The translations under genes and the position numbers were made by a program. Below the pieces are notes generated by a model that saw only the letters and a list, made by a program, of their open reading frames with translations, was not told the DNA's origin and did not search any database. Below, one piece after another: positions 18,242-36,226 of a stretch of 64,000 nt of DNA (position 1 is its first letter; each line of letters begins with the position of its first letter). Source of the DNA: Thermodesulfobacteriota bacterium (lineage in GTDB: Bacteria; Desulfobacterota; Desulfobulbia; Desulfobulbales; SURF-16); NCBI GenBank assembly GCA_049323935.1, contig JBMONN010000004.1:16486-80485 (forward strand), read 5' to 3'.

Positions 18242-18269
18242 CCCCGCTAAACATCTTTTTTTAGTGGCC

Positions 18270-22900: not shown

Positions 22901-22936
22901 TCTGTCGCTGTTCGTGTCGTCCCGGTAAGCAGATAG
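19934..22936 (+). CDS. Large secreted multidomain protein, paralog B (extra N-terminal Cys-containing beta-rich insert + PKD-like + toroid-like + PKD-like x2 + FN3-like)
   Basis: RBS AAAGGGGGA precedes the ATG at 19934. The signal peptide MKNRKAYTIAALTGVALLLSASLASA is nearly identical to paralog A. PKD-type signatures: WYRWDFGDGS, FEWDWDNDGDYD...VTLRVTDDND, and WEWDL...GLRVTDN. Toroid-like centre (GLWWLYQQG..., NSASQWGAIGMLPA...). The last ~85 aa are nearly identical to paralog A. Confidence 0.8.
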   Translation: MKNRKAYTIAALTGVALLLSASLASAAVSKVRAIPWQGDPTKYHTAIATESSSWNTSGSDNVLRVRGEAKSGSYISWIRAVITRGGSTERVCLYDVNGGNCTETNLCTASYSDAAFDQSTNIAASPIPDSITLEVLGTNCSSSRQVELLQNGVSVGGAEINTAYDCTCTPALQSPTLAGASGARLKGVIDTTNTDTVWYRWDFGDGSMSDVTALSGKTRYNVAANHAYSGTPGAPFTARLLVDGVDNSMTHAIADSYLVKLEADTLDARINVAIDEGLWWLYQQGNNLGGYASYPRTYDGSPYMTWLQTSYVYTLVTPTASAVHAFGINGHKMKGNVNEDPYVEAVQQGMNYLVKGYNLYPTYPALRASAISSVNHGGVIDNPEAGQAAPNGYGIEVYDWGGSHIPYQSGQIMDAIIASGVSPTDLTGRDFTRTDATVVRNWTYGELLQDMADMHAWGQSDSTGCNGGVCGSWWYGWNYGFPGDNSASQWGAIGMLPAQQPPWNVVVPAWVKNYNANWLAYSMGCSGPSAAVTSCSNNFFSYNGVGGCAGDNCQQTTTSGMVQMIFDGQTTADLKWGRAQKKIADEWRSFLHDGSNWGGYRTYGWYSFAKAMRLSLPESTTQLVKTGGASFDWYYGDPTTTACTTEANCEKGLAQRILETQAADGQWPSGNLTNPPLTTAWMIITLKPSLFASSPIACFDYSPKSTYSGDTVSFDPTCSGHSEPGKTIANLTKFEWDWDNDGDYDAETTTPDMVTNVFTCDTPPCTFPVTLRVTDDNDPALTATVKQNVAITNPPHPPTADAGGPYMTSLCPADSLTLDGSASFDPNEGEYEAGCTDCDPDTITAWEWDLTPPLTGFDDESGETVTVAPGTYFAAAGNQDVGLRVTDNTVESFPGSGEPNLTDTDFGTVAVADDCLCTLTARAKLNKVQLVWANTGAASYDIYRSTTGPNTGFSLIKDNLVTSYATYLDSGLTIGVPYWYRVVDSNGCGSVAVRVVPVSR

Positions 22937-22970
22937 TTTTTTCTGAAGCCGTTTCATGTCGTGACCCTTG

Positions 22971-23014
22971 CCCCAAGCCGGCAGCCTCCCCAGGCTGCCG
23001 GCTTGGGGTTTTTG
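22971..23014 (+). terminator. Rho-independent terminator after paralog B
   Basis: CCCCAAGCCGGCAGCC-(TCCCCA)-GGCTGCCGGCTTGGGG, a 16-bp perfect stem followed by TTTTTG. Confidence 0.8.
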
Positions 23015-23045
23015 TGAGGGGGAATTTTTTTTAACCGTCCACACA

Positions 23046-23846
23046 ATGGCACATACAAATTTATCCTTTTTGGACTCGAACAGGGGCAGGACGTTTCGTG
23101 TCGTGGCCTTGGTTGTGGTGTTTTGGCTGGGCATCGCTGTCTTGCCGGTGCATGCGGGCGCCCCGCCCCCAGCCTTTACCATTGAAATGCATGATTCCCT
23201 GCTGGATATCACGGCGGAGAATGTGCCGCTGCGGCAGATTCTTGATGCGATTACCCAGAGGTCTGGGCTCATCCTGCGCTTTGCCGATCAGGATGGGGAG
23301 CTGGTTTCCTGCCATCTGACCTCCGTCAGTCTGCCGGAAAGTCTGGAGAAGATCCTGGGGAACTGGAATTATGCCCTGGTCTACAAAAAAGACCGTCAGG
23401 GGCGTTCTGTTCCCGACACGCTGTGGGTCATCAATAGAAACCCGCAGAGAATGACCGTTGATGTCGCGGCTGATGGACAGCGACTCACCCGGATAGGCGG
23501 CGCTGACTCGGTTGGGCGCGAAAATTTGCCGAAATTCAAGAAGGATGATATTCGCTCCGTTTTCGCGGATAGGGAAAAAATTCTAACAGACGTTGAGGCA
23601 GCGCCCTATTCTGTTGGCGAACACAACGAAGGGGTCGAGATCACCACTCTTGCCGATACCTCACCATTAAAGTTGATCGGCCTGCAAACAGGCGACGTGG
23701 TTCGTAATATTAATGGACAGGCGGTAAACTCGGCCGAAGAACTTGTCAACGCTTTCGCCACCCCCATTCCCGCCGATGTGTCAGTTGTCCGCATCGAAAG
23801 GCATCGTGACGGACGTATTGAGACAATTTATCTGCATTTGGAGTAA
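23046..23846 (+). CDS. Single-pass membrane protein with STN-like domain and C-terminal PDZ domain (unit 2 paralog)
   Basis: MAHTNLSF...FRVVALVVVFWLGIAVLPV (TM helix). LDITAENVPLRQILDAITQRSGLILRF...VSLPESLEKILGNWNYALVYKK. PDZ-like GVEITTLADTSPLKLIGLQTGDVVRNINGQAVNSAEELV. Collinear with 18270-19106. Confidence 0.7.
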   Translation: MAHTNLSFLDSNRGRTFRVVALVVVFWLGIAVLPVHAGAPPPAFTIEMHDSLLDITAENVPLRQILDAITQRSGLILRFADQDGELVSCHLTSVSLPESLEKILGNWNYALVYKKDRQGRSVPDTLWVINRNPQRMTVDVAADGQRLTRIGGADSVGRENLPKFKKDDIRSVFADREKILTDVEAAPYSVGEHNEGVEITTLADTSPLKLIGLQTGDVVRNINGQAVNSAEELVNAFATPIPADVSVVRIERHRDGRIETIYLHLE

Positions 23847-24290
23847 TGGACAGTCGGGACGGATTTTGCGGGAAGACGCACTGTACAAAAAATGACCAGC
23901 GCTGGCCTGTTGCTCGCCAGTATGTGTCGACAGGAGGGTGGGCAGGGATTTTTTTTGTCTTTTTTTATTTGTAAAATCAGAATGTTATTCGATGTTTTTC
24001 TTTCGTCGTTTTTTTCTTGTTGTTGGCATCTTTCCTGCTCTATTATCTAACTGCGATATGTCCCCCGCATATTGAGAGGTTCCTTCCCCCTTTTGTTGCT
24101 CTGATGCCGAGCTGGTTTGCCTTCCCCCGGCGGATCGGCTCGGCTCATTCAGCATCTCGGCAGCGCGGTCAGCTCGTAGCGTTTCCTGCGGGCCGCTCGC
24201 CGGCGCATCTTCTCGCCTGCCCATCCATTTCCCGTTTCCAGCCGCGGTTTTTTCGCGACTCGGCTACATCGCAAAACTGCATTGGTGAAC

Positions 24291-24839
24291 ATGAAAGAAT
24301 TGGTCATAGTGGTCGATACCGCAGACAATGAAGTCGGCAGCGAAGAGAAGTTTGCCGTCCATGCCAATGGCCTGCTGCACCGGGCCTTTTCTCTCTTTGT
24401 CTTCAATTCGCAGGGCAACTTGTTGCTTCAGCAGCGGAACCGGAATAAGTATCACACGCCTGGCCTGTGGAGCAATACCTGTTGCAGTCATCCGCGGCCC
24501 GGCGAAACCCTCGACGCCGCGGTGCGACGTCGGTTGCTGGAGGAGATGGGATTTTGCTGTGATGTGAAAGAGATATTTAGTTTCCGTTATGAATTGCCGT
24601 TGGAAAATACTATGATAGAACATGAGTACAACCATGTCTTTATCGGCTTTCATGACGGCGATCCGTTGCCGAATCCGGCCGAGGTCGAGGCGTGGCGTTG
24701 GCTTTCCCTGGCCGAGGTGCGCGCCGAGGCCGCCAGAGGGCCGCATCTCTTTACCCCGTGGTTTACGCTGATCCTGCACGACTACGGGCATCTTTTTGAT
24801 AAGGCACTGACGGCTGGCAAGGCGGGAAAACGAAAATGA
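24291..24839 (+). CDS. idi: Isopentenyl-diphosphate delta-isomerase, type 1 (Nudix)
   Basis: GLLHRAFSLFVFNSQGNLLLQQR...KYHTPGLWSNTCCSHPRPGE...RRLLEEMG...EHEYNHVF is the classic IDI-1 signature (catalytic Cys in TCCSHP, plus the Nudix-like box). GTG 24282 is an alternative start. Confidence 0.85.
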   Translation: MKELVIVVDTADNEVGSEEKFAVHANGLLHRAFSLFVFNSQGNLLLQQRNRNKYHTPGLWSNTCCSHPRPGETLDAAVRRRLLEEMGFCCDVKEIFSFRYELPLENTMIEHEYNHVFIGFHDGDPLPNPAEVEAWRWLSLAEVRAEAARGPHLFTPWFTLILHDYGHLFDKALTAGKAGKRK

Positions 24840-26071
24840 CAACGACGGAAAGAGAAAAAAGAAAGGTTGGGCTCTGGCTCATCGGCGCACGCGGTTCAAT
24901 TGCCGCCACCGTCATGCTCGGTGCCTCCGCCCTGCGCCGGGGAGAGACCGCGGCCACCGGCCTGGTGACCGCGGCAGCCCCCTTTGCCGGTCTTGACCTG
25001 CTGCCGGTGACGGATTTCGTTTTCGGTGGCTGCGATATCCGCCGGCAATCATTGCGGGACGCGGCCCGCCAGGCCATGGCCGAAGGGGTGGCGCTGGATC
25101 AGTCCTTTCTTGACCGGATCGGCCCGGAACTTGACGAGGTGGAGAGCGACATCAGCCCCGGCACCTGCCGCAACTGCGGAGAGATGATCGCCGGTCTGGC
25201 CGAGCAGGCTGTTGCGGGCAAAACGGTGAGTGCGGAGCTCGCCGAAATCCGTCGGCAGCTCAGTGCCTTTCGCGCCAAACGGCGGCTCGGCAGGGTCATA
25301 GTGATCAATCTTGCCTCCACCGAGCCGCCCCTGCCGCTTACCCCCCTTCACCATGACCCGGAGCTGTTTGTCGAGCGGATCGCCGCCAATGACGGCGAGG
25401 CGGTCCAGGCCAGCACCCTCTATGCCTATGCCGCCATTCTCGAAGGCTGCCCCTACATCAACTTTACGCCGTCCAGCGGCGCGTTGATCCCGGCCCTGGT
25501 CCGGCTCGCCGAGCAAAGCGGGGTACCGGTGATGGGCAATGACGGCAAGACCGGCGAGACCCTGGTGAAATCGGCGCTCGCCCCCCTCTTTCTCTCCCGC
25601 AACCTGGAGATCCTGAGCTGGGAAGGGGTCAACATGCTGGGCAACATGGACGGTCAGGTGTTGAACGACCCCCGCAATTGCCAGTCCAAGCTCAAATCAA
25701 AAGATCAGGTGCTGCGCAATATCATGGGTTACGAACCCCACTCCCGGGTCCATATCCACTATGTGCCGTCGTTGGGCGATCAGAAGACCGCCTGGGATTT
25801 CATCCATTTCCAGGGCTTTCTCGGGGTCAGGATGTCGCTGCAGTTCACCTGGCAGGGTTATGACTCCATTCTCGCCGCCCCCCTGGTCCTTGACCTGGCC
25901 CGGCTCGCCGATCTGGCCCACCGGCACGGCGAGGGCGGCCTGATGCCCCAGCTTGCCAGTTTTTTCAAATCCCCTCTCGGCGTGACGGAATACCGCCATG
26001 CCGCCCAGTATGCCATGCTCACCGACTATGCGGCAAAAAAAAGAGAGATCAATGAGCCATCCCATCAATGA
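24836..26071 (+). CDS. myo-Inositol-1-phosphate synthase family protein (sugar-phosphate cyclase)
   Basis: ATGA overlap with idi. N-terminal Rossmann segment VGLWLIGARGSIAATV. Conserved blocks: YINFTPS, GVPVMGNDGKTGETLVKSALAPLF, LSWEGVNMLGNMDGQVL, KSKDQVL, and GDQKTAWDFIHFQGFLG...SILAAPLVLDLARL. Confidence 0.75.
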   Translation: MTTTEREKRKVGLWLIGARGSIAATVMLGASALRRGETAATGLVTAAAPFAGLDLLPVTDFVFGGCDIRRQSLRDAARQAMAEGVALDQSFLDRIGPELDEVESDISPGTCRNCGEMIAGLAEQAVAGKTVSAELAEIRRQLSAFRAKRRLGRVIVINLASTEPPLPLTPLHHDPELFVERIAANDGEAVQASTLYAYAAILEGCPYINFTPSSGALIPALVRLAEQSGVPVMGNDGKTGETLVKSALAPLFLSRNLEILSWEGVNMLGNMDGQVLNDPRNCQSKLKSKDQVLRNIMGYEPHSRVHIHYVPSLGDQKTAWDFIHFQGFLGVRMSLQFTWQGYDSILAAPLVLDLARLADLAHRHGEGGLMPQLASFFKSPLGVTEYRHAAQYAMLTDYAAKKREINEPSHQ

Positions 26072-26093
26072 AAAATGCAAGGAGGCAGCACCA

Positions 26094-26807
26094 GTGAAGA
26101 AAAAGGCAATGCGAACGCTTGTCATGGCCGCTCTCGCCATGCTCTGTACCCTTGGCAACTCCTTTGGCCAGCCGGCCCAGGTCGCCCCGGCCCCACCGCC
26201 ACCGCCGGCGGAAGAGATGATCGCGCCACCCCCGCCCCTGCGCATGATTGAGCCCGGGATCTACGAGATGGGCGACATCCGCATCAGCAAGGAGAAGCAG
26301 CGGCTGGAATTCCCGGCCGAGGTCAACATGGACAAGGGACTGCTCGAATATGTCCTGGTCGGCAATAGCGGCAAGGTCCATGAAAGCCTGCTGCGCACCG
26401 GGGTTTCCCCCTATGCCCTGCAGATCTCGCTGTTGCTGCTCGGGGTGGAGGGTTCGCTAAACCCCTTGACCCAGCAGGGCGAGGCCCGCCAGCCGCAAGG
26501 TGGCCGGGTTGCGGTCCGGGTGGCCTGGCAGGAAGGCGGCAAGGAAAAAAAGGCGGAGGTGGAAGAGTGGATCAGCAAGGGCGACAAGCCGGCCGGTGCG
26601 ATCCCCTGGGTCTTCACCGGCTCGGTGGTCATGGACGGGGTGTTCATGGCCCAGGTGGAAAAATCCATCATTGCCCTCTTTCATGACCCGATTGCCCTCA
26701 TTGATCATCAGCTTGCCGAAGGGACCAGTGACGAGATCTGGCAGGTGGCGGGCAACGTGCCGCCGGTGGGCACCAAGGTGACGGTTGTTATCGAGAAGAT
26801 GAAATAA
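26094..26807 (+). CDS. Secreted hypothetical protein with Pro-rich linker
   Basis: GTG start 7 nt after AAGGAGG. Signal peptide (M)KKKAMRTLVMAALAMLCTLGNSFG, then a PAPPPPPAEEMIAPPPPL linker. I do not recognise a family. It is translationally close to the following gene. Confidence 0.6.
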   Translation: MKKKAMRTLVMAALAMLCTLGNSFGQPAQVAPAPPPPPAEEMIAPPPPLRMIEPGIYEMGDIRISKEKQRLEFPAEVNMDKGLLEYVLVGNSGKVHESLLRTGVSPYALQISLLLLGVEGSLNPLTQQGEARQPQGGRVAVRVAWQEGGKEKKAEVEEWISKGDKPAGAIPWVFTGSVVMDGVFMAQVEKSIIALFHDPIALIDHQLAEGTSDEIWQVAGNVPPVGTKVTVVIEKMK

Positions 26808-26827
26808 ATTGCAGGAAAGGAGAGACG

Positions 26828-28018
26828 ATGAAAACAAAGATCACGGCACTATTTGCGCCGCTTGCCATGCTTGTGTTGCTTGTTCTGGCCCCGGCGGTGG
26901 GGGGCGACGAAATCCTGCGCGGCAACGAGCCGGCCGTCACAACCGATATCTCGCTGAAAAACGAGGTCCAGCATGCGGTGGAACGCTCTCTCGCCTGGCT
27001 TGAGAAAAATCAGAATCCGGCCGGCCACTGGTCGCAGCCCGATCATCCGGCCCTGACCGCCCTGGTGCTGACCGCCTGTATGGGCGAGCCAAGCGGCAGG
27101 CTGCGAGCCAAACCGCCGGAGTTTGTCGAAAAGGGCTATCAGTATCTGCTGCAATGCGTCAAGCCGGACGGCGGCATCTATGTGCGCGACATGGCCAACT
27201 ACAATACCGCTGTTTCCATGATGGCGCTCATCAGCGCCGCCAACCCGGCCTATGAAGGGGTCATCAGAAAGGCCCGCAATTTCGAGGTGGGCCTGCAGGA
27301 CGATTTTGACAAAAAGGGCGAGACGGATAACCCGCTGGACGGCGGGGTCGGCTATGGCGGCAAGTACAAGCATTCGGATCTCTCCAACACCATGTTCGCC
27401 CTCGAAGCCATCCATTACAGTAAGAATCTCGTCCAGGACAGCAAGGATGCTGATCAGGCAAAGGAGCTGAACTGGCAGGCGGCGATCCGTTTCATCGAAC
27501 GGTGTCAGAATCTGCCCGGGCATAACGATCAGCCGTGGGCCAGCGATGACCCGCAGAACAAGGGCGGCTTCATCTACTTCCCCGGCGACAGCAAGTCCGG
27601 CGAGATGGATCTCGGCAATGGCCGCAAGGCCCTGCGATCCTATGGCAGCATCAGTTATGCCGGGTTGCTCAGTTACATCTATGCTGATCTGCAAAAGGAC
27701 GATCCCCGGGTGACGGCGGCGCTGGACTGGCTGCAAAAGAACTATACTCTCGAGGAGAATCCCGGCATGGGGCCGGAAGGACTTTTCTACTACTATCACA
27801 CCATGGCCAAGGCCCTGTCCGCGTATGGAACGCGGGAACTTGTGCTCGCCGACGGCAGCCGGGTGGACTGGCGGCGGCAGCTTGCGAAAAAGCTGCTCAA
27901 CCTCCAGAACAGCGACGGCTCCTGGGTCAACGCAAACGGCCGCTGGTGGGAAAAGGACCCGGTGCTGGTCACCGCCTATGCCGCCATTGTCATGGAAATC
28001 ATTCACCGGGGACTGTAA
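26828..28018 (+). CDS. Secreted prenyltransferase/squalene-oxidase-repeat (alpha/alpha toroid) protein
   Basis: Signal peptide MKTKITALFAPLAMLVLLVLAPAVG. Repeats of the terpenoid-cyclase/prenyltransferase type: AVERSLAWLEKNQNPAGHW, YQYLLQCVKPDGG, ALDWLQKNYT, and LLNLQNSDGSW. Confidence 0.7.
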   Translation: MKTKITALFAPLAMLVLLVLAPAVGGDEILRGNEPAVTTDISLKNEVQHAVERSLAWLEKNQNPAGHWSQPDHPALTALVLTACMGEPSGRLRAKPPEFVEKGYQYLLQCVKPDGGIYVRDMANYNTAVSMMALISAANPAYEGVIRKARNFEVGLQDDFDKKGETDNPLDGGVGYGGKYKHSDLSNTMFALEAIHYSKNLVQDSKDADQAKELNWQAAIRFIERCQNLPGHNDQPWASDDPQNKGGFIYFPGDSKSGEMDLGNGRKALRSYGSISYAGLLSYIYADLQKDDPRVTAALDWLQKNYTLEENPGMGPEGLFYYYHTMAKALSAYGTRELVLADGSRVDWRRQLAKKLLNLQNSDGSWVNANGRWWEKDPVLVTAYAAIVMEIIHRGL

Positions 28019-28888
28019 ATGAAACTCTCTTTCAGCACCAATGCCTATTCTCGCCATTCCGTCTTCACGGCGGTGGAGGGCATTGCCGCGGCCGGTTACG
28101 AGGGGGTGGAGCTGCTGGCCGACATGCCGCATCTCTACCCCTTTTCCTTCGGGGTCGAGGAGATGGCCCGCCTGCAAGAGCTTCTGCAGCGGCACCATCT
28201 TGCGGTGGCCAACATCAACGCCAACACGGCGATGGGTTATTACGGCCGGTCCTTCTGGGAATCGTTGTTCGAGCCGTCGCTCGCCAATCCAGATCCGCAG
28301 GCGCGCAAGTGGCGGATCGACTATACCCGGCGCTGCATCGCCCTGGCCCACCGGCTCGGCGCGCGAAACGTCAGCGTTACCTCCGGCTGCATGGTGCCGG
28401 GCATCCGGCCGGAGGATTCCCTGCTGCTTCTGCGTGATTCGTTAAAGGAGGTCGTCGCATTTGCCCAGGATTTCGGGGTGCGCATCGGCATCGAGTATGA
28501 GCCGGGGCTGCTGATCTCCTGTGCCGAGGAGCTGGCCACCTTTCTCGTGCTCTTTGATTCACCGTTTCTCGGCGCCAACCTCGATTTGGGTCACAGTCAT
28601 GTGCTGGGCGAGGATCACGGCGAGGTGCTCGCCTTGCTCGGCGACAAGGTCTTTCATATCCATCTGGAGGATATCAGCCGGCGTAAGCATTACCACCTCA
28701 TCCCCGGCCAGGGCGACATGGATTTCCCCGCCATCTTTGCCGCCCTGAACCAGCACGGCTACCAGGGATTCATAACAATCGAGCTTTACACCTGCGCCAA
28801 CAATCCGGACGAGGCGGCCCGCCTCTCCATCGCCTATCTGCGGGATCTTGCCAATCAGCCACACAGGGAGAAACACTCATGCGCATGA
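28019..28888 (+). CDS. Xylose-isomerase-like TIM-barrel protein (sugar-phosphate isomerase/epimerase; EboE-like)
   Basis: The start abuts the previous stop. GYEGVELLADMPH..., IGIEYEPGLL, NLDLGHSHV, HIHLEDI...HYHLIPGQGDMDF, and GFITIELYT are typical metal-ligand blocks of this fold. Confidence 0.75.
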   Translation: MKLSFSTNAYSRHSVFTAVEGIAAAGYEGVELLADMPHLYPFSFGVEEMARLQELLQRHHLAVANINANTAMGYYGRSFWESLFEPSLANPDPQARKWRIDYTRRCIALAHRLGARNVSVTSGCMVPGIRPEDSLLLLRDSLKEVVAFAQDFGVRIGIEYEPGLLISCAEELATFLVLFDSPFLGANLDLGHSHVLGEDHGEVLALLGDKVFHIHLEDISRRKHYHLIPGQGDMDFPAIFAALNQHGYQGFITIELYTCANNPDEAARLSIAYLRDLANQPHREKHSCA

Positions 28889-29679
28889 TCGAACCCCATA
28901 TTCACACCATGGTGCGGACCACCGATGACTACTACAACATGGCGGTGGCCGGCATCGTCGCCTGCGTCGAGCCCTCCTTCTGGTCCGGGCTGGACCGCCG
29001 GGCGGTGGCCTGCTTCGAGGATTACTGGGAACACATGATCACCACCGAAACGGCGCGGGCCGCCAAATACGGCCTCCGCCACTACACTATGCTGAGCCTC
29101 AACCCCAAGGAGGCGCGCAACGCCATTGCCCATCAGGTGTTGGACAGCATGGAGAAATTCCTCGACCGGGAGAACGTGGTCGGCATCGGCGAGATTGGCT
29201 TTGACCTTATTGCTGGTCAGGAAGAGGAGATTTTTCGCCGCCAACTGCGCATGGGCAATGAACGGAAAATGCCGATCTGCATCCACTCCCCCCATCACAA
29301 CAAGCTGAAAGGGATCGAGCGGATCATCGAGATCATCGAAGATGAGGGGGTGGCCCAGGAACGGATCGTCATCGATCACAACACCGAGGAGACCATCGAG
29401 CTGTCCCGGCAGACCCGCTGCTGGCTCGGCATGACCGTCTATTATGTCACCAAGCTGAGCGCCGAACGGGCGGTGAACATCATCGGTCGCTACGGCGCGG
29501 ATCGGATGATTGTCAACGGCTCCGCCGATTGGGGCTACTCCGATCCCCTGGCGGTGCCCAAGGTGGCCATGTTGATGCGAAAAAGCGGCGATTTCTCCGA
29601 GGCGACCATCAAACAGATCGTCTTTGACAATCCGTATCAGTTTTTGCGGCATTCCGCCCGCTTCGATCTGCCGGCCTAG
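28879..29679 (+). CDS. TatD-related metal-dependent hydrolase (EboB-like)
   Basis: Overlaps the upstream gene by 10 nt. MIEPHIHT (HxH metal site), VVGIGEIGFD, PICIHSPH, VIDHN, and GSADWG give an amidohydrolase/TatD ligand pattern. Confidence 0.7.
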   Translation: MRMIEPHIHTMVRTTDDYYNMAVAGIVACVEPSFWSGLDRRAVACFEDYWEHMITTETARAAKYGLRHYTMLSLNPKEARNAIAHQVLDSMEKFLDRENVVGIGEIGFDLIAGQEEEIFRRQLRMGNERKMPICIHSPHHNKLKGIERIIEIIEDEGVAQERIVIDHNTEETIELSRQTRCWLGMTVYYVTKLSAERAVNIIGRYGADRMIVNGSADWGYSDPLAVPKVAMLMRKSGDFSEATIKQIVFDNPYQFLRHSARFDLPA

Positions 29680-29693
29680 GGTGGGAACGGGAC

Positions 29694-30533
29694 ATGAAAC
29701 TCGCCTTCAGCGCCAACGCCTTCCGCCGTCACAGCCTGGCCGAGACCATCGCGGTGCTGGCTGATCTCGGTTACGCCGGCATTGAGATCATGGCTGACAT
29801 CCCCCATGCCTATCCACCGCAGTTGACCAGTCGCGATGTTGATGCCATCGCCGCCCTGCTGGCGCGGCACCGGCTGGCGGTGGCCAACATCAACGCCTTC
29901 ATGCTCTGGGCGGTGGGTGATACCTGGCACCCCTCCTGGATCGAGGCCGATGAAGAGGCGCGCCGTATCCGCATCGAGCATACCAGAAACTGCATTCGGC
30001 TGGCCGCCGATCTTGGCGCGGCTACCATCTCCACCGAACCAGGGGGGCCGCTCAACGGCATGGAGCGCAGCGCCGCCCTGGAGCTGTTCCGCCAGGGGCT
30101 TGACCAGGTGGCGGCCGACGCGGCCCGGGCCGGGGTGCGGGTACTGATCGAGCCGGAACCGGACCTGCTCATCGAGACCAGCGACCAGTTTGTCGAGTTT
30201 TTCCGGCAGCTCGACCCGGCCGTCTTCGGTCTCAACTTCGACATCGGCCATTTCTACTGTGTCGGCGAGGACCCGGCGCTCCTCGTCAGCCGGCTCGCCC
30301 CTGTTGCCCGTCATTACCACCTGGAGGACATTGCCTCCTCCCGCAAACATCACCATCTCATGCCGGGGGAGGGCGCCATTGATCTGACCGCCGTGTTGCA
30401 GGCGATAACGGCGAGCGGCTACGACGGCTTTGTCACGGTGGAGCTCTATCCCTACGAGGACAAGCCGGCGGAGACGGCGGCGCATTCGCTTGCCGTCCTC
30501 CATCGTCTGCTCGGCGATAAAGCGGACCTATAA
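29694..30533 (+). CDS. Second xylose-isomerase-like TIM-barrel protein
   Basis: GYAGIEIMADIPH, VLIEPEPDLL, NFDIGHFYCV, HYHLEDI...HHHLMPGEGAIDL, and GFVTVELYP. It is a paralog of 28019-28888. Confidence 0.75.
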   Translation: MKLAFSANAFRRHSLAETIAVLADLGYAGIEIMADIPHAYPPQLTSRDVDAIAALLARHRLAVANINAFMLWAVGDTWHPSWIEADEEARRIRIEHTRNCIRLAADLGAATISTEPGGPLNGMERSAALELFRQGLDQVAADAARAGVRVLIEPEPDLLIETSDQFVEFFRQLDPAVFGLNFDIGHFYCVGEDPALLVSRLAPVARHYHLEDIASSRKHHHLMPGEGAIDLTAVLQAITASGYDGFVTVELYPYEDKPAETAAHSLAVLHRLLGDKADL

Positions 30534-30536
30534 GCC

Positions 30537-31421
30537 ATGGGCCACAAATTGGCAAGGCGGGTGCAGGCCTGCCTGCAACTCATGCGATTGCCCAATATCT
30601 TCACCGCCATTGCCGATATTGTCGCCGGCTACCTCATGGTCCGTGGTTTTGCCGTGGACTGGTCCGAGCTGGCTGGACTGGTGGTCGCCACCGCCGGCAT
30701 CTACGGCGCCGGCTGTGTGCTGAATGACTGCTGCGACCTGGAGATCGATCGCCGGGAACGCCCGCACCGGCCTCTGCCGGCCGGGCTGGTAAGTCCCCGG
30801 GCCGCCTTGGCTCTCGCCATTTTTTTGTTTGCCATCGGCCTGGTCGGCGCATATGCGGCCGGACCCCTGTCGCTCTTCCTGGCCCTGGTCATCGTCGTTC
30901 TGGTCATTGTTTATGACACTGTGGCCAAGCAGCACGACATCGCCGGGCCGCTGGTCATGGGCGGCTGCCGGGGGGCAAATCTGCTGCTCGGCATGAGCCC
31001 GCACCTTGCCGTTGCCCTTCCGCTGCTTTTTCCCCTGGTCACCTTCCTCTACATCGCCCTGGTCACCCGGCTCAGCGGCCGGGAAATCAGCGGCGTGGTC
31101 GGCGGGCGGGCCGGCGCGGCCCTGACCGGCATCGCCGCCCTTGTTCTGCTTGTGGTCGTGCTGGTCGGTCGAGGCGACATGCGTCCCGCCGCCCTGGTCT
31201 TTCTTGCCGTGCTGGTCGGTCTCACCCTGCCCGCGCTGGCCCGGGCCATGCGGGAGCAAACGCCGGCGGCGGTGCAGGGCGCGGTGGGGGCGCTGATCCT
31301 GGCCCTGCCCTTTCTTGACGCGGCCTATGCCGCCGCCATCCAGGGGCTGATGGCCGGCCTAGTGGTAATCTGCTGTCTGATCCCCGCCCTGCTCGTCAAG
31401 CGGCTCTTTTATGTGACATAG
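30537..31421 (+). CDS. UbiA-family aromatic/polyprenyl prenyltransferase (EboC-like)
   Basis: About 8-9 TM helices. First Asp-rich motif NDCCDLEIDRRERPHRPLPAG. N-terminus MRLPNIFTAIADIVAGY is typical of the family. Confidence 0.8.
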   Translation: MGHKLARRVQACLQLMRLPNIFTAIADIVAGYLMVRGFAVDWSELAGLVVATAGIYGAGCVLNDCCDLEIDRRERPHRPLPAGLVSPRAALALAIFLFAIGLVGAYAAGPLSLFLALVIVVLVIVYDTVAKQHDIAGPLVMGGCRGANLLLGMSPHLAVALPLLFPLVTFLYIALVTRLSGREISGVVGGRAGAALTGIAALVLLVVVLVGRGDMRPAALVFLAVLVGLTLPALARAMREQTPAAVQGAVGALILALPFLDAAYAAAIQGLMAGLVVICCLIPALLVKRLFYVT

Positions 31422-31463
31422 TGACGACTGCCGGCAATGCCCGGCCTCTGTGCTGGCAAAATT

Positions 31464-31597
31464 GATGAAATCGTAAAACTGAAAATTAACCACAGAGACT
31501 GCGGAACGCACAGAGATAACTAATTGTAACTAAAGATGTTTTCTCTGTGCTCTCAGTGTGCTCTGTGGTGAAAAAAGACTTTTTACGGGTTCATCAA
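31464..31597 (+). repeat. Full copy of MITE/REP-like palindromic element (between UbiA and AP-family genes)
   Basis: GATGAAATCGTAAAA...AACCACAGAGAC..GCACAGAGATAAC...TTCTCTGTGCTCTCAGTGTGCTCTGTGGTGAAAAAAGACTTTTTACGGGTTCATC. Terminal inverted blocks CGTAAAA/TTTTACG; CACAGAG occurs twice and CTCTGTG twice. It aligns along its full length (roughly 85% identity by eye) with 56424-56552. Confidence 0.7.
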
Positions 31598-31614
31598 AAT
31601 AAGGAGAGAATGCG

Positions 31615-32955
31615 ATGAACGGAAAGAGAGTGGTTGTTCTCGATGTGGTCGGCCTGCGGCCCGAACATCTTACCGATGGGGCCAGGGCGCCCCATCTTGC
31701 CGCCCTGGCCGCCAGGGGGCGCCTGCACCGGATTAAACCGGTCTTTCCGGCCGTCACCCTGCCGGTGCAGGCCTCGCTGACCAGCGGGGTGCCGCCGCGG
31801 CAGCACGGCGTGGTCGCCAACGGCTTCTACAGCCGCGATTTTTTCAGCGTTGCCTTCTGGGAGCAGCCGGCGAGTCTGGTCCAGCACGAGCGGATCTGGG
31901 AGACTCTGCAACGGCGCCACCCTGGCTTCACCACCGCCCTGCTTTTTATGCAGAACAGCCTCTACGCCGACTGCGCCTGCGTTCTCACCCCGCGGCCCAT
32001 GCATACCGACGAGGGCCTGGTGCCGTGGTGCTATTCAAAGCCGGTGGGTTTTTACGAGGAACTGGCCGCCGAGCTCGGCCCTTTCCCGCTCATGCACTAC
32101 TGGGGGCCGATGACCTCCATCGCCTCCAGCCGCTGGATCGCCGGGGCCGCGGTGCGGACCATGGCACGTATCCGACCGGATCTGCTCTTTGTCTACCTGC
32201 CCCATCTCGACTACTGCTGCCAGAAGGTGGGGCCGGATCATCCCTCGGTGGCGGACGAGCTGCTCCTGGTGGACGCCGAGGTCGGCCGCATCGTCGAAGG
32301 GGTCGCCGATCTCGGCCTGCTGGAGGAAACGGTCTTTGTCGTGGTTGCGGAATACGCCTTCAACCGGGTGAGCGCCGCCATTCCCCTCAACCTGATCCTG
32401 CGGGAAAACGGTCTGCTCGCCACCCGCACCATCGCCGGCCGTGACTATGTCGATTTCGAACTGAGTCCGGCCTTTGCCATGGTCGATCATCAGCTTGCCC
32501 ATCTCTATCTGAAAAAAGGACAGGAACAGGCGGTCCGCCGGGTGCTTGAAAAAATCGACGGCATCGATTTTCTCCTCGACCGGCCCGGTCAGCGCCGCTT
32601 TGCCGTCGATCACCCGAACAGCGGCGACCTTGTGGCGGTGAGCGCCCGGGACCGCTGGTTTTCCTACCCCTGGTGGGAGGAGCGGACACGGGAGCCCGAT
32701 TTTGCCGGCCATGTCGATATCCACCGCAAACCGGGCTACGACCCGCTGGAGCTCTTCCTGGAACCGGGAACGCGACGGATTTCCCAGGAGAGCGGCCTGA
32801 TTCGCGGTTCCCACGGCTATCCGCCGCTGACGGCTGCGGACGAGGTGCCGCTGCTGGTCAGCGGCAGCGCGCCGGACAGCCTGGCAACCCTGCAAGGCGC
32901 TGACCTCTCTGTCTCCGATGTGCCGGCCCTGCTTGCCGAACTGCTGGGCGGCTGA
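31615..32955 (+). CDS. Alkaline-phosphatase-superfamily nucleotide pyrophosphatase/phosphodiesterase (EboF-like)
   Basis: VVVLDVVGLRPEHL...KPVFPAVTLPVQASLTSG (nucleophile Thr region), ...VYLPHLDY..., GSHGYP near the C-terminus. RBS AAGGAGAG upstream. Confidence 0.75.
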   Translation: MNGKRVVVLDVVGLRPEHLTDGARAPHLAALAARGRLHRIKPVFPAVTLPVQASLTSGVPPRQHGVVANGFYSRDFFSVAFWEQPASLVQHERIWETLQRRHPGFTTALLFMQNSLYADCACVLTPRPMHTDEGLVPWCYSKPVGFYEELAAELGPFPLMHYWGPMTSIASSRWIAGAAVRTMARIRPDLLFVYLPHLDYCCQKVGPDHPSVADELLLVDAEVGRIVEGVADLGLLEETVFVVVAEYAFNRVSAAIPLNLILRENGLLATRTIAGRDYVDFELSPAFAMVDHQLAHLYLKKGQEQAVRRVLEKIDGIDFLLDRPGQRRFAVDHPNSGDLVAVSARDRWFSYPWWEERTREPDFAGHVDIHRKPGYDPLELFLEPGTRRISQESGLIRGSHGYPPLTAADEVPLLVSGSAPDSLATLQGADLSVSDVPALLAELLGG

Positions 32956-33063
32956 CCCCCGGTAACAGTTTTCGGTTTGACTTCCGCCGCTTTTCCGTGG
33001 GAACATGGAAGGGTACGGAGCGCGTTGTTTTTCGACCCTTCTTTTGCCGAGAGAATACGACGC

Positions 33064-34935
33064 ATGGCCCAGTTTATCCCCTTGCTGCTCATCGCCTTGC
33101 CGGCCGCGGCGGCCGTTGCCGTTTTTTTCTGCCGCAGCCCCGGAGTGCGCGCCCTGCTGGTCGGCGCCACGGTGGCGGGGCTGGCGGCGACTGCCCTGGG
33201 CGGCCGTGCCACCTTTGCCCCTGATCCCGGCTGGCGCGCCAGCCTCGATCAGGCGATTGTCGCCGCCGATTTTCTCGTCCTGCTCTTGCTGTTTTTTTTC
33301 GGTTGCCGGCACCGCCACCGGCTGGTTATGGTGCTGACCATCAGCCAGGCGGGGCTTCTTGCCGGGCTCGATTTTTTTGTCATCAGGCCGGAACCACTGG
33401 CGCCGCTCTTTGTTCTCGATGCCCTTTCCCTGCTGCTGGTGCGGGTCGTCTGTCTGGTGGGGGGGCTGATCTGCCTGTTTGCCATTCCGTACATGGCGGT
33501 CCATGAACGGCATCAGCGCCTCAGCCGCTCGCGGCAGCCCGTTTTTTTCGCCATCCTCCTCCTCTTTCTCGGCGCCATGAACGGCCTGGCCCTGTGCCGT
33601 GATATCCTCCATTTTTATTTTTTCTTTGAGTTGACCACCCTCTGCTCCTTTGTCCTGATCAGCCATGACCGCAGTAAGGAGGCGGTGCAGAATGGTCTCA
33701 CCGCCCTGTGGATGAACAGCCTGGGCGGTCTGGTTCTGCTGCTTGCCATTTGGGGACTCTATGAGCAGCATGGAAGCACCGATATCCTGCATCTCGCCCG
33801 GGAACCGGCGGCCGGCCAGATGAGCCTGCTGCCTCTTGCCCTGCTTTTGCTCGCCGCCTTTACCAAGTCGGCTCAGCTCCCCTTCCAGCAGTGGCTGCTC
33901 GGCGCCATGGTCGCGCCGACCCCGGTCTCCGCTCTGCTTCACTCCAGCACCATGGTCAAGGCCGGGGTCTATCTCGCCATCCGTTTTGCCCCGGCCTTGA
34001 CCGACACTCCGCTCTCGCCGCTCCTCACCCTGACCGGCGGCCTGGTTTTTGTCGGGGCGGCCGGGCTGGCCCTGGGCCAGGACAACGCCAAAAAGGTGCT
34101 CGCCTGTTCAACGATCAGCAATCTCGGCCTCATCTTCGCCTGCGCCGGCATCGGCAGCCCGGCGGCGATCATTGCCGGCATGCTGCTGATCCTCTTTCAC
34201 GCCGTGGCCAAGGGATTGCTGTTTTTGTGCATCGGCGCCGCGGAGCAGCAGACAGGCAGCCGGGATATCGAGGTGCTGCGCGGCCTCTATGCCTCCATGC
34301 CGCTCACCACCCTTTGCGCCCTCGTCGGCATCGTCACCCTCATCCTGCCGCCCTTCGGCATGCTGCTCGGCAAATGGCTCGTGCTCACGGCCGGGGCGGC
34401 GAGTCCTCTCTTTTTTCTGCTGGTCGGGCTGGGCAGCGCCGTCACCGCCCTCTATTGGGTGCGGCTGGGCGGCACCCTGCTCGGGGTCTCGATGCCGCCC
34501 CGGCAATTGCGTGAGAACACCGCACCGCTCATGCTCCTGCCCCTGCTTGCCCTGGCCGCTGCCTCCCTGCTGCTTTCCTTCGCCTTTCCCTGGCTGGCGG
34601 CGTCGATGGGAACGACCGATCTTCCGGCCATCCTGTTGGGCGGCAATGCCCCGACCGTCCTCCTTGCCTTGGCTGCCGTGACCATTGGCGCCGCGTTCTG
34701 GGGGCTGCTGGCGATGCGCCGGGCCCTGGTCGCCGCCGCGGCAAGTCCCTATCTGTCCGGCGCCGAGAGTCCGACCCCGGGGCACTTCATCGGCCCGGGC
34801 GGGGAGGAGGTCACCCTCCGGGTCGGTAATTATTACCTGGCCAGTCTCTGTGGCGAGGCGAGGCTGGGCCGCTGGCTGACGATCGGCGCCCTTGCCATGA
34901 TTGGTCTTCTGTTGACGGGGGATCTATGGCGGTGA
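33064..34935 (+). CDS. echA: Ech-type hydrogenase membrane subunit A (NuoL/HyfB-like proton-conducting antiporter subunit)
   Basis: 623 aa, polytopic. Conserved antiporter-like blocks: FFELTTLCSFVLI, KSAQLPFQQWLLGAMVAPTPVSALLHSSTMVKAGVYL, and ISNLGLIF...HAVAKGLLFLCIG. ATG 33064 chosen; the upstream part of the ORF is unlikely to be coding. Confidence 0.8.
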   Translation: MAQFIPLLLIALPAAAAVAVFFCRSPGVRALLVGATVAGLAATALGGRATFAPDPGWRASLDQAIVAADFLVLLLLFFFGCRHRHRLVMVLTISQAGLLAGLDFFVIRPEPLAPLFVLDALSLLLVRVVCLVGGLICLFAIPYMAVHERHQRLSRSRQPVFFAILLLFLGAMNGLALCRDILHFYFFFELTTLCSFVLISHDRSKEAVQNGLTALWMNSLGGLVLLLAIWGLYEQHGSTDILHLAREPAAGQMSLLPLALLLLAAFTKSAQLPFQQWLLGAMVAPTPVSALLHSSTMVKAGVYLAIRFAPALTDTPLSPLLTLTGGLVFVGAAGLALGQDNAKKVLACSTISNLGLIFACAGIGSPAAIIAGMLLILFHAVAKGLLFLCIGAAEQQTGSRDIEVLRGLYASMPLTTLCALVGIVTLILPPFGMLLGKWLVLTAGAASPLFFLLVGLGSAVTALYWVRLGGTLLGVSMPPRQLRENTAPLMLLPLLALAAASLLLSFAFPWLAASMGTTDLPAILLGGNAPTVLLALAAVTIGAAFWGLLAMRRALVAAAASPYLSGAESPTPGHFIGPGGEEVTLRVGNYYLASLCGEARLGRWLTIGALAMIGLLLTGDLWR

Positions 34936-35792
34936 ATCTCACGTCCCTCATCCTGGTTCCAGTCGGCCTTGCCGCCGCGCTGCTCATCGGCGGTCTGCTC
35001 GCCGGCATCGACCGCCGACTGACCGCCCGCCTCCAGGCCCGGCAGGGGCCGCCGCTGACCCAGGCCTGGTGGGACGTGGTCAAGCTGTTCGGCAAGCGGA
35101 CCCGAGCGGTCAACCCGTGGCAGCCTTTCTGCGCCCGCATCTCCTTTGCCGCCGCCGCCACGGCGCTGGTGCTGCTCTGTTATGCCGCCAATTTGCTCCT
35201 CATCCTCTTTGTTTCGGCAACGGCCGGCGCCTTTCTTGTCTTCGGGGCGATGAGTTCGCTCTCGCCGTGGAGCCAGGCAGGGGCCCAGCGCCAGCTCTGG
35301 CAGCTCTGCTGCTGCGAGGCCCTGCTCTTCTGTTTTGCCGCCGGGGTCTCTCTCGTCAGTGGCGGCTTTGCGCCGGCCGCCCTTTTTGCCGAGTCGCAAC
35401 CGCTCCTCCTGCGCGCCCCGCTGCTCTTTGCGGCGATGCTCGTTGTCCTTGCCATCACCATGAAGAAGTCACCCTTTGATCTGGCCGCGAGCCACCATGC
35501 CCATCAGGAACTGGTGCGCGGGGTCTATAGCGAATACGGCGGCGCTGATCTCGCCTGGCTGGAAATGGCCCACTGGCTGGAGACCGTGCTCGTCCTCGCC
35601 CTCTGTGGCCTGTTCTGGGCGACTAATCCACTTGCTATGGTGGTCGTCGCCACCGGTGCCTTTCTGGCGGTTATCCTGCTTGACAATGTCGTCGCCCGTC
35701 TGACCTGGCGGTGGCTGGCGGGCCGGGTCCTGCCGGCCGCCCTGGTTGCCGCCGGGCTGACGGTTGCCTGGCTGGCCTGGAGCGGGCCATGA
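34926..35792 (+). CDS. echB: Ech-type hydrogenase membrane subunit B (NuoH/HycD-like)
   Basis: Overlaps echA by 10 nt. GIDRRLTARLQARQGPPL...DVVKLFGK is the NuoH/HycD signature. About 8 TM helices. Confidence 0.8.
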   Translation: MAVNLTSLILVPVGLAAALLIGGLLAGIDRRLTARLQARQGPPLTQAWWDVVKLFGKRTRAVNPWQPFCARISFAAAATALVLLCYAANLLLILFVSATAGAFLVFGAMSSLSPWSQAGAQRQLWQLCCCEALLFCFAAGVSLVSGGFAPAALFAESQPLLLRAPLLFAAMLVVLAITMKKSPFDLAASHHAHQELVRGVYSEYGGADLAWLEMAHWLETVLVLALCGLFWATNPLAMVVVATGAFLAVILLDNVVARLTWRWLAGRVLPAALVAAGLTVAWLAWSGP

Positions 35793-36226
35793 AGCTGCTC
35801 GCCACCCTGCTCGACGCGGCGCGGCGTCGTTCGCCCTGGCTGCTCCATTTCGACTGCGGCAGCTGCAACGGCTGCGACATCGAAACCCTGGCCTGCCTGA
35901 CGCCGCTCTACGATGTGGAACGCTTTGGCGCGATCAATACCGGCAATCCGCGCCACGCTGATATTCTGCTCGTCACGGGCACCGTCAACTATCGGAACCG
36001 GCGCACCCTGGAGATTCTTTACCGGCAGATGGCGGAACCGAAGGCGGTGGTGGCCATCGGCAGCTGCGGCCTGTCCGGCGGCATCTTCCGCCAGGCCCCC
36101 AATGTGGTGGGCGGGGTCGACAGGGTGATCCCGGTCGATGTCTATGTCCCCGGCTGCCCGGCCCGGCCGGAGGCGATCATCGACGGGGTGGTGGGGGCCG
36201 TGGCAAAACTGCGGGAGGGAGGATGA
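35789..36226 (+). CDS. echC: Ech-type hydrogenase small subunit C (NuoB-like, [4Fe-4S])
   Basis: ATGA overlap. HFDCGSCNGCDIE, ILLVTGTV, AIGSCGLSGG, and VPGCPARPEAI are the four Cys ligands of the proximal cluster. Confidence 0.85.
   Translation: MKLLATLLDAARRRSPWLLHFDCGSCNGCDIETLACLTPLYDVERFGAINTGNPRHADILLVTGTVNYRNRRTLEILYRQMAEPKAVVAIGSCGLSGGIFRQAPNVVGGVDRVIPVDVYVPGCPARPEAIIDGVVGAVAKLREGG

Follow-up and report, generated by a model that had tools for sequence, protein, structure and literature searches.

A MIPS-entry relative of the ebo gene cluster, with putative envelope and sigma-54 layers, in a Thermodesulfobacteriota bacterium

Introduction

Within a 64,000-nucleotide stretch of DNA from contig JBMONN010000004.1 of a Thermodesulfobacteriota bacterium – the whole of which is referred to below as the window – positions 24291-32955 hold nine tightly packed plus-strand genes. 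Together they form a relative of the ebo family of biosynthetic clusters, in a version that is entered through a myo-inositol-1-phosphate synthase (MIPS) in place of the 3-dehydroquinate-synthase-like (DHQS-like) enzyme EboD. We put at roughly 0.6 the probability that the locus as a whole encodes a MIPS-entry version of an ebo-type pathway, complete with an envelope stage and control by sigma-54.

The ebo cluster was defined by Yurchenko et al. (2016), and a role in precursor traffic in Nostoc was proposed for it by Klicki et al. (2018). A preprint of May 2026 (bioRxiv 10.64898/2026.05.21.724671; the 2026 preprint below) reports that thallusin needs ebo genes and that EboC farnesylates hydroxyquinaldic acids; it connects thallusin with ebo core genes in five phyla and counts Desulfobacterota among the carriers of these genes. 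It also describes an Actinomycetota-type cluster that lacks eboD and is flanked by ino1 (a MIPS gene), ino2 and ino3 (putative isomerases/dehydratases). The 2016 paper was considered as a source for the MIPS variant as well and set aside, since inositol is never mentioned in it.

The original prediction for this DNA, made from its letters, held that the cluster is related to ebo and that a MIPS-family protein occupies its cyclase slot. That central idea is correct and has already been described in another phylum; what we find in the window is a lineage-specific variant, of which the envelope and regulatory layer seen in Desulfobacterota had gone undescribed.

A nine-gene operon

Families were assigned by comparing the window proteins with Pfam and NCBIfam profiles. 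The genes, which abut or overlap one another, are:

24291-24839, +, idi, type-1 isopentenyl diphosphate (IPP) isomerase (NF002995, 169 bits against a cut-off of 127; TIGR02150, 130 bits)
24836-26071, +, MIPS, myo-inositol-1-phosphate (inositol-3-phosphate) synthase (PF07994, 177 bits; PF01658, 121 bits)
26109-26807, +, secreted YdjY-domain protein with a signal peptide and a proline-rich linker (NF040466, 125 bits)
26828-28018, +, secreted single-domain alpha/alpha-toroid protein, prenyltransferase/squalene oxidase repeat (weak PF13243)
28019-28888, +, TIM1, short xylose-isomerase-like TIM barrel (PF01261, 151 bits)
28879-29679, +, TatD-family metal hydrolase, EboB-like (PF01026)
29694-30533, +, TIM2, short xylose-isomerase-like TIM barrel (PF01261, 142 bits)
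30537-31421, +, UbiA-family membrane prenyltransferase, EboC-like (PF01040; best NCBIfam match NF035940, EboC, 230.5 bits)
31615-32955, +, nucleotide pyrophosphatase/phosphodiesterase of the NPP/alkaline phosphatase (AP) superfamily, EboF-like (PF01663, 171 bits)

Every gene of this co-oriented set lies where the original prediction had placed it, and the Pfam and NCBIfam profiles agree with the families it had named. Intergenic distances run from -10 to +37 bp, with the exception of 193 bp ahead of the NPP/AP gene: the 3' end of idi overlaps the start of the MIPS gene by 4 nt, TIM1 begins on the base right after the toroid stop codon, and the TatD and TIM1 genes overlap by 10 nt. The genes are predicted to be translationally coupled. 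A simple scan for sigma-70 promoters and terminators returned nothing informative within the operon.

Two secreted proteins had been said to be inserted into the set, and both indeed carry N-terminal signal peptides. The YdjY reading frame is open from 25998, and its probable start at 26109 gives the signal peptide MRTLVMAALAMLCTLGNSFG; that of the toroid protein is MKTKITALFAPLAMLVLLVLAPAVGG. The NPP/AP-family protein has no signal peptide and is predicted to be cytoplasmic.

The sole long spacer, 31422-31614, is AT-rich and 193 bp long, and the same place holds a TonB-dependent receptor and a TonB_C protein in close relatives (L001:11087-14120; L006 – loci used for comparison carry an L number throughout). 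The clade of the window has either lost this insert or had never gained it.

Kinship with canonical ebo clusters

Canonical eboABCDEF clusters, known from Bacteroidota, Cyanobacteria and eustigmatophyte plastids, share with the window a common logic of sugar-phosphate cyclase, TIM barrel and prenyltransferase. They differ in having EboA, the DHQS-like EboD and an EboE of ~400 aa, whereas the window lacks EboA and has MIPS together with two TIM barrels of ~280 aa that come from other clades. With the eboABCDEF cluster of a Cytophagaceae metagenome-assembled genome (MAG; L025) as the canonical reference, the window proteins align over their full length, TatD with EboB at 43% identity (263 aa), UbiA with EboC at 33% and AP with EboF at 37% (436 aa).

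The UbiA protein scores best on the EboC family (230.5 bits, curated cut-off 250), and reaches 146 bits on the model of the actinobacterial SCO3242 family. The same EboC model gives 215 bits for the prenyltransferase of a Hahella cluster that has EboA and EboE (L023) and 205 bits for that of a Desulfatiglandales cluster with EboD and EboE (L008); the MIPS-type UbiAs that pass the cut-off are those of Bacillus (326 bits), L001 (253 bits) and L091 (250.2 bits). The range of MIPS-type UbiAs (159-326 bits) overlaps that of clusters containing EboA or EboE (205-318 bits), and the window's protein falls within the 205-326 bits spanned by UbiAs that either sit in clusters with EboA, EboD or EboE or are named eboC by the Prokaryotic Genome Annotation Pipeline (PGAP). 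Its motif N63DxxD67xxxD71 is invariant, as is Y56, a residue of the EboC type that sets these enzymes apart (PMC9235831). We would regard it as a member of the EboC family in practice, formally under the cut-off.

EboB and EboF have no curated models; membership was judged by alignment to L025 and by neighbour-joining (NJ) trees; by that measure, TatD belongs with EboB and AP with EboF. The window TatD and canonical EboB are equally remote from housekeeping TatD (~41 bits on TIGR00010), and in the tree TatD lies inside the EboB-like family as the sister clade of canonical EboB. The AP/NPP protein lies inside the EboF-like family, sister to the canonical clade and beside homologues from L008, Bacillus and Nitrososphaeraceae. 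A position of these two proteins outside the Ebo clades, which the original prediction had named as a reason to abandon it, is contradicted by both trees.

The remaining ebo proteins are missing. Neither the EboD of L025 nor that of L008 has a single tblastn match anywhere in the 64-kb window; the EboA profiles (NF035937/NF035938) find nothing among the cluster proteins, nor does the EboA of L025 or L023 find a match in the window; and the sole tblastn match of EboE across the 64 kb is a local one of 44 aa. EboA is also reported to be absent in Planctomycetota (2026 preprint). The claim that the families of eboB, eboC, eboE and eboF are reproduced here is therefore right for EboB, EboC and EboF and wrong for EboE, and EboA and EboD are absent too.

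The two TIM barrels

Although TIM1 and TIM2 had been taken for EboE-family proteins, they score 17.7 and 37.7 bits on the EboE model (NF035939, cut-off 250), on which true EboE proteins reach 413-458 bits. At ~280 aa they are also ~120 residues shorter than EboE (~400 aa, range 380-410), and they form separate clades in the tree.

Nor does the idea of a duplicated TIM-barrel gene, understood as a recent event, hold. The two proteins are 41% identical, and each has orthologues of its own across lineages: the TIM1 clade takes in the proteins of Bacillus plasmid p1, of Haloferax pHV3 and the extra short TIM barrel of gamma-type ebo clusters that still keep EboE, and the TIM2 clade takes in Bacillus, Haloferax and the TIM barrel upstream of UbiA in Planctomycetota. 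The two are thus old enzymes and ancient paralogues. The inositol-catabolism proteins IolE and IolO are among the nearest named families, all Iol-model scores being far under their cut-offs, and NCBIfam profiles detected none of IolG, IolD, IolB and IolC among the cluster proteins.

MIPS in the cyclase slot

The MIPS protein aligns over its full length with the Archaeoglobus fulgidus enzyme 1u1i (296 bits, ~48% identity counted from the alignment) and keeps all six catalytic residues (D225, K274, K278, K306, D332 and K367). It is probably a genuine inositol-3-phosphate synthase, and the window in this respect matches the presence of Ino1 in the Actinomycetota-type cluster. The original prediction had conceded that an ordinary MIPS belonging to a separate pathway would speak against it: the enzyme does look ordinary in sequence, yet it is embedded in the pathway rather than separate from it.

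The clearest view of the slot comes from L008, on a Desulfatiglandales MAG contig (CAXXJJ010000001), where the order is sigma-54 regulator, TonB-dependent receptor, YdjY, toroid, EboC-like protein, TatD, AP, EboD, EboE, second YdjY and PKD protein. Here EboD (DHQS-like) scores 522 bits and EboE 417 bits on their profiles, and the toroid is 63% identical to that of the window. The two loci have in common the sigma-54 regulator, YdjY, the toroid, a nearby PKD protein, a sigma-54 promoter with a C-loop leader hairpin and the homologues of EboB, EboC and EboF; L008 differs in having EboD and EboE, a TonB-dependent receptor and a second YdjY, and in lacking idi. Because the same shell and the same B, C and F genes surround EboD and EboE in L008 and MIPS, TIM1 and TIM2 in the window, MIPS can be placed in the EboD slot, and MIPS and the two short TIM barrels together appear to replace the EboD–EboE pair of canonical clusters. 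In the NJ tree, the TatD of L008 (EboD type) is sister to that of L089 (MIPS type, Desulfobacterium), which suggests that the cyclase swap happened more than once.

The proposal of a MIPS-family protein in the cyclase slot is borne out both by this exchange and by the eboD-less ino1-ino3 type of the 2026 preprint. The producer of saccharoquinoline and thallusin that exemplifies the latter, Saccharomonospora sp. CNQ-490, has ino1-ino3 with eboB, eboC, eboE and eboF, and resembles the window in its lack of EboD and in its MIPS, two putative isomerases/dehydratases, TatD, UbiA and AP. By description, TIM1 and TIM2 may be likened to its Ino2 and Ino3. Unlike it, the window has no TIM barrels beyond the two and neither a canonical EboE nor EboA, its UbiA fits the EboC model better (230 bits) than that of the SCO3242 family (146 bits), and it adds idi, the secreted YdjY and toroid and a sigma-54 two-component system, in an anaerobic Thermodesulfobacteriota host.

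Distribution among bacteria and archaea

The nine-gene order is kept in L001, L004, L006 and L007, whose proteins are 62-98% identical to those of the window; the closest, L007 (MAG contig JBMONO010000009), is 94-98% identical across the cluster. More distant Desulfobacterota have a similar order, with eight of the nine genes in L088 and seven of nine in L089 and L090. Since this order persists in relatives and in distant Desulfobacterota, and a six-gene core – MIPS, the two short TIM barrels, TatD, UbiA and NPP – recurs in other phyla, the arrangement is not due to chance. That core is found on Bacillus cereus plasmid p1 (NZ_CP045607.2) in the order TIM-TatD-TIM-eboC-NPP-MIPS, with PGAP naming the UbiA EboC, and on Haloferax volcanii pHV3, as well as in an alphaproteobacterial MAG (L091) and in Nitrospirota (L092); many Planctomycetota and one Gemmatimonadota MAG have MIPS-TIM2-UbiA-TIM-AP sets. 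On annotated plasmids, matches were confined to Bacillus, haloarchaea and Aureibacter.

The Bacillus and Haloferax sets contain the same six families as the window, with TIM barrels of the orthologous clades and, in Bacillus, the order TIM1-TatD-TIM2-eboC-NPP; they differ in that MIPS stands at the other end and that idi, YdjY and toroid are lacking. Unlike the window, the Bacillus set has a pyrroloquinoline quinone (PQQ)-type sugar dehydrogenase and a thiamine pyrophosphate (TPP) enzyme upstream. A literature search found no paper on the function of the Bacillus plasmid or Haloferax pHV3 sets.

The other three genes are less widely shared. The idi gene, which the original prediction had rightly placed at the head of the cluster, is restricted to the closest clade, being present in L001, L004, L006 and L007 and absent from L088-L091. 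YdjY accompanies the cluster in L001, L004, L006, L007, L088 and L089 and in the EboD-type L008. Toroid homologues number more than 7000, the best 120 of which are all 58-100% identical, and TatD has 1824 homologues at E up to 1e-10. The complete (100%) match to the window's toroid is an NCBI protein of a Thermodesulfobacteriota MAG. All sampled contexts of toroid or TatD homologues carry the cluster (L088, L089, L090, L091 and L092), including all three toroid contexts; L088 is the locus whose toroid UniRef assigns to Desulfacinum infernum, L089 is from an uncultured Desulfobacterium and L090 from Desulfobulbaceae.

A first impression of rarity was overturned by these toroid and TatD searches, which revealed thousands of relatives: a word-indexed search with UbiA had returned only ~17 homologues at 37% identity or more, and a scan of species genomes only L007 and L006 above 60% identity. 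The apparent rarity is an artefact, because UbiA is a fast-evolving membrane protein. Rates within the operon are unequal in any case, TatD being 93-98% identical among relatives whose UbiA is only 62-64% and whose MIPS is ~76% identical, and still 77-86% in loci where UbiA falls to ~40%. Of the remark that no role had been described for such a cluster in an anaerobe, one part has to be given up, the core being neither rare nor undescribed, and the other stands for the envelope and regulatory layer of Desulfobacterota.

The secreted pair and other envelope-associated genes

In Desulfobacterota, YdjY and the toroid accompany ebo cores of both cyclase types. The AlphaFold2 (AF2) model of the toroid (mean predicted local distance difference test score, pLDDT, 81.6) is a single (alpha/alpha)6 barrel, for which Foldseek returns, at a template-modelling (TM) score of ~0.5, monodomain 'squalene-hopene cyclases', the drimenyl-diphosphate synthase SsDMS, the meroterpenoid cyclase MstE, AprG and the farnesyltransferase beta subunit. 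The protein has QW-type repeats. The DxDD class II acid motif is absent from its sequence, and in a weak profile alignment its SDLSNT stands opposite the SDVADT of SsDMS, with Asn at the position of the catalytic Asp. A role as the pathway's missing terpene cyclase was considered on account of the fold and kept as a minor possibility, given the TM score of ~0.5, the lack of DxDD, the export signal and the Asn at the acid position. We read it as a putative terpenoid-binding or terpenoid-processing periplasmic protein.

For YdjY, a single-sequence AF2 model was unusable (pLDDT 38), and no relative was found in the PDB by sequence. The window protein and Escherichia coli YdjY are related through the hidden Markov model (HMM) only, their pairwise match not being significant. 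In E. coli, ydjY sits between the DedA genes ydjX and ydjZ (NC_000913.3 1833401-1835515), and the Desulfobulbaceae cluster, which has no YdjY, has a DedA/VTT-family membrane protein (L090:6059-6718). By analogy, YdjY proteins may be connected with lipid transporters of the DedA type.

TonB-dependent receptors, with or without TonB, lie inside or beside ebo-type cores in five architectures: L001/L006, where the receptor is placed between UbiA and AP, L089, L008, Methylocaldum L013 and Nitrospirota L092. The window has none. TonB, siderophores and anaerobes go unmentioned in the 2026 preprint, and a full-text search found no paper that treats EboC together with TonB, MoxR or Bat proteins.

In several loci where the MIPS-type core lacks YdjY and toroid, it comes after an sGDH/PQQ-like beta-propeller dehydrogenase (L091:6058-7901, L009:5170-7013 and L086:4359-5780). 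A probable cytochrome c follows this dehydrogenase in two such clusters, L091 included, and the same position of L009 holds an unannotated open reading frame (ORF) of 120 aa. As both protein families are usually extracytoplasmic, their presence points to an extracytoplasmic step, and the two may form an alternative accessory module for it.

Candidate regulation and leader RNA

The following features upstream of the operon bear on its regulation:

8860-10578, +, HAMP-HisKA sensor histidine kinase (Pfam HAMP, HisKA, HATPase_c)
10413-11969, +, NtrC-type sigma-54-dependent response regulator (Pfam Response_reg, Sigma54_activat, HTH_8)
23881-23892, +, CTGTACAAAAAA, candidate upstream activator site, invariant in the window, L007, L004 and L001
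24024-24039, +, sigma-54-type -24/-12 promoter TGGCAT-N5-CTGCT, 9 of 11 consensus positions
24054-24074, +, leader hairpin 1 with a C-rich loop (CGAUAUG-UCCCCCG-CAUAUUG), kept in L007, L004 and L001
24106-24144, +, leader hairpin 2 with a 16-bp stem and a UUCCCCC loop (RNAalifold, hairpin scan)

In L008, L088 and L089, orthologues of the kinase (36-45% identity) lie directly upstream of the cluster and orthologues of the regulator (55-60% identity) adjoin it, and the kinase is a probable regulator of the locus in the window as well. The 444-bp region upstream of idi contains blocks that are conserved in relatives ~35% diverged at the protein level. One of these, CTGTACAAAAAA, precedes the sigma-54 box by ~140 bp in four relatives; among 93 loci and the window, its first 11 bases occur elsewhere only at ~3369-3379 of L089, beside the sigma-54 regulator gene, and we take it as a candidate binding site for the activator. 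Boxes of the form GG-N10-GC, equivalent to the promoter, align in L007, L004 and L001 and also occur in L088, L089 and L008 (11 of 11); the background is 17 sites of at least 9/11 in 128 kb of window sequence.

From four leader sequences, RNAalifold derives a fold of 22 predicted pairs, with compensatory changes at 7. Just after the sigma-54 boxes of L088, L089 and L008 there are 5'-proximal hairpins with UUCCCC(C) loops on different stems (C-loop hairpins at L088:2328, 5567 and 5601; L089:3531; L008:7800), and the recurrence of the same loops on different stems argues for an element that acts at the RNA level. At the gathering threshold the leader matches no Rfam family, and with E relaxed to 10 there is just noise; the C-loop hairpins may represent a new leader RNA motif. 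A further hairpin, with a 17-bp stem and a UCCCCA loop, lies at 22970-23009 between a PKD and a PDZ gene of the window, and in L088 the CGAUAUG stem of leader hairpin 1 recurs in a hairpin ahead of the kinase gene.

Neighbouring genes in the window

Between the regulator and the operon lie two pairs of genes recognised by Pfam:

15623-19106, +, large PKD-domain protein and PDZ-domain protein, pair 1
19895-23846, +, large PKD-domain protein (19895-22936) and PDZ-domain protein (22968-23846), pair 2

The pairs are paralogous (42% and 39% identity). Pair 2 is a conserved neighbour: its counterpart stands directly upstream of the cluster in L001, L004 and L007, the kinase and regulator intervene in L088, and a PKD protein also flanks L008 and L090.

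Downstream, 21 bp past the AP gene, begins an operon (32977-37680, +) for a group-4-type, energy-converting (Ech/Mbh-type) [NiFe] hydrogenase with NuoL/MrpA-like, NuoH-like, NuoB-like, 30-kDa and NuoD-like subunits, which fits an anaerobe. It was considered as part of the system and dropped: only the window, L007 and L004 have it behind the cluster, ribosomal or other genes taking its place in L001, L088, L090 and L091, and it is probably a separate unit.

About 16 kb upstream lies a Bat-type operon (1455-8427, +) that encodes a MoxR AAA+ ATPase, DUF58, VWA, VWA-TPR and BatD proteins. MoxR-DUF58-BatA/VWA genes stand immediately upstream of ebo-type cores in gammaproteobacterial loci, and in the Nitrospirota locus the Bat genes run straight into a TonB-dependent receptor, TonB, TIM, TatD, TIM, UbiA and AP; the association between Bat and ebo genes is recurrent (L010, L013, L023, L041 and L092).

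Farther along, at 39263-42036 (-), two genes side by side encode ankyrin-repeat proteins of large size (354 and 569 aa), a feature not usually seen in free-living bacteria. At 41825-43936, 44253-47222, 54518-55795 and 14716-15633 (all -) there are long ORFs, the longest of 989 aa, without a Pfam match; some may be shadow ORFs in sequence of 60-65% G+C. A signalling block at 47565-62691 comprises a hybrid PAS histidine kinase, two methyl-accepting chemotaxis proteins, CheA and two phosphonate/NMT1-type periplasmic binding proteins.

Proposed pathway and alternatives

In the pathway that we propose, MIPS would convert glucose-6-phosphate to inositol-3-phosphate in the cytoplasm, the two short TIM barrels (of the IolE/IolO-like dehydratase/epimerase family) and the EboB-like TatD would remodel the cyclitol, the EboF-like NPP phosphodiesterase would handle the phosphate ester, and the EboC-like UbiA would attach a prenyl chain, with idi raising the supply of prenyl donor in the window's clade. 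The lipophilic product would then be handed to the cell envelope, where YdjY and the toroid may act on it or carry it, and where sister lineages would add a dedicated TonB-dependent receptor and TonB. Transcription would be read from the sigma-54 promoter under the control of the upstream sensor kinase and the NtrC-type regulator. From gene families, the conservation of catalytic residues, operon packing, synteny and the module swap, all of which are directly visible, we infer the chemistry of each step, the stage in the periplasm, the regulation and the product. The last of these could be a quinoline meroterpenoid similar to saccharoquinoline or thallusin, a metallophore, or a prenylated cyclitol lipid or carrier; thallusin itself is disfavoured because EboE is absent and O2 is lacking.

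Several points weigh against this proposal. Outside Actinomycetota, MIPS-type clusters come without a product, transcript or enzyme assay. EboE, reported to be essential for thallusin in Stieleria (2026 preprint), is missing here together with EboA and EboD, so that the chemistry may differ from that of canonical ebo. The correspondence of TIM1 and TIM2 with Saccharomonospora Ino2 and Ino3 is by description only. The cluster has no dehydrogenase or aminotransferase, which leaves a route from inositol phosphate to a deoxy-inosose or a quinoline unexplained, and the proposed late oxidative step towards thallusin, which by analogy resembles an O2-dependent reaction, is unlikely in this anaerobe. 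To these may be added the lack of a TonB-dependent receptor in the window itself, the toroid's modest fold matches (TM only ~0.5) with no DxDD and, in a weak alignment, Asn for the catalytic Asp, and a sigma-54 promoter of only 9/11, of a kind met 17 times in 128 kb.

Two other accounts keep the pathway and specify its product. According to one, which we consider unlikely, the cluster makes the ebo product itself: a drimane-quinoline meroterpenoid of the saccharoquinoline/thallusin type that is secreted as a metallophore and re-imported as a metal complex through a TonB-dependent receptor, with YdjY and the toroid as periplasmic partners. The 2026 preprint lends it weight by tying ebo core genes, including the eboD-less ino1-ino3 type, to thallusin in five phyla, by listing Desulfobacterota carriers and by reporting stable Fe(III)-thallusin complexes, as do the recurrence of TonB-dependent receptors beside ebo-type cores and the toroid's fold, that of drimenyl-diphosphate synthase and the monodomain cyclase MstE. 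Yet the EboE that the preprint found essential is missing, the rearrangement of saccharoquinoline to thallusin recalls a dioxygen-dependent ring cleavage whereas the Ech-type hydrogenase context is typical of anaerobes, the toroid is exported and without a class II acid motif, a receptor is missing from the window, and no aspartate-handling enzyme is evident. The second account, a little less probable again, has the cluster make a membrane lipid with a structural or carrier function – an inositol phosphate polyprenyl ether, formed by a UbiA similar to DGGGP synthase and flipped to the periplasmic leaflet, where it would be an envelope constituent or a carrier for exports. Next after EboC and SCO3242, the NCBIfam matches of UbiA are indeed an unnamed prenyltransferase and the archaeal geranylgeranylglycerol-phosphate geranylgeranyltransferase; MIPS is catalytically ordinary in appearance; TatD (77-98% identity) and the toroid (58-85%) are very strongly conserved across Desulfobacterota, in the manner of housekeeping proteins; L090 has a DedA/VTT protein in place of YdjY, just as E. 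coli ydjY is flanked by two DedA genes; and a traffic role had been proposed by Klicki et al. (2018). But the window has no CDP-alcohol transferase, glycerol-phosphate enzyme or flippase, EboC enzymes of three phyla farnesylate hydroxyquinolines in vitro (2026 preprint; PMC9235831), the kinship between the window and E. coli YdjY proteins goes through the HMM with no significant pairwise match, and the two TIM enzymes, TatD and NPP would be left with no obvious role.

That the genes are neighbours without meaning – MIPS and idi serving inositol and isoprenoid metabolism at large, and the TIM, TatD and AP proteins forming a catabolic set for sugar or inositol – is very improbable. Ordinary MIPS catalytic residues and the presence of IolE and IolO among the nearest named families of the TIM barrels are what this view would predict, but Iol-model scores far under the cut-offs and the missing IolG, IolD, IolB and IolC are not; start and stop codons overlap, and MIPS-TIM-TatD-TIM-UbiA-NPP co-occur in Bacillota, Halobacteria, Alphaproteobacteria, Planctomycetota, Gemmatimonadota and Desulfobacterota.

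Significance

Few biosynthetic gene sets that still lack an explanation are as widespread in bacteria as ebo, which has just recently been tied to the algal morphogen thallusin. Within one phylum, the cyclase front end proves interchangeable – EboD with EboE, or MIPS with two short TIM barrels – while EboB, EboC, EboF and the envelope shell stay constant, and this swap against a constant remainder separates the genes that make the cyclitol from those that act later. It is on this clean exchange and on the envelope and regulatory layer that the interest of the locus mainly rests. The MIPS-type core occurs in strict anaerobes, on Bacillus plasmids and in haloarchaea, hosts in which algal signalling cannot be the general role and a late step that needs O2 is improbable.

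Leads to the native function are offered by the recurring TonB-dependent receptors, the exported YdjY and toroid, the sigma-54 two-component control and the conserved leader. A broader idea, possible but on balance doubtful, is that in anaerobic Desulfobacterota ebo-type pathways of either cyclase type are the biosynthetic core of a sigma-54-run envelope system that includes the kinase and NtrC regulator, the C-loop leader, YdjY, the toroid, PKD/PDZ proteins, a TonB-dependent receptor and, in several phyla, a Bat module; the native product would then be a prenylated carrier or metallophore that faces the periplasm or outer membrane and is re-imported by its producer, with algal signalling secondary. 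A product other than thallusin would be a new metabolite, prenylated and derived from a cyclitol, made by bacteria of the sulfate-reducer type.

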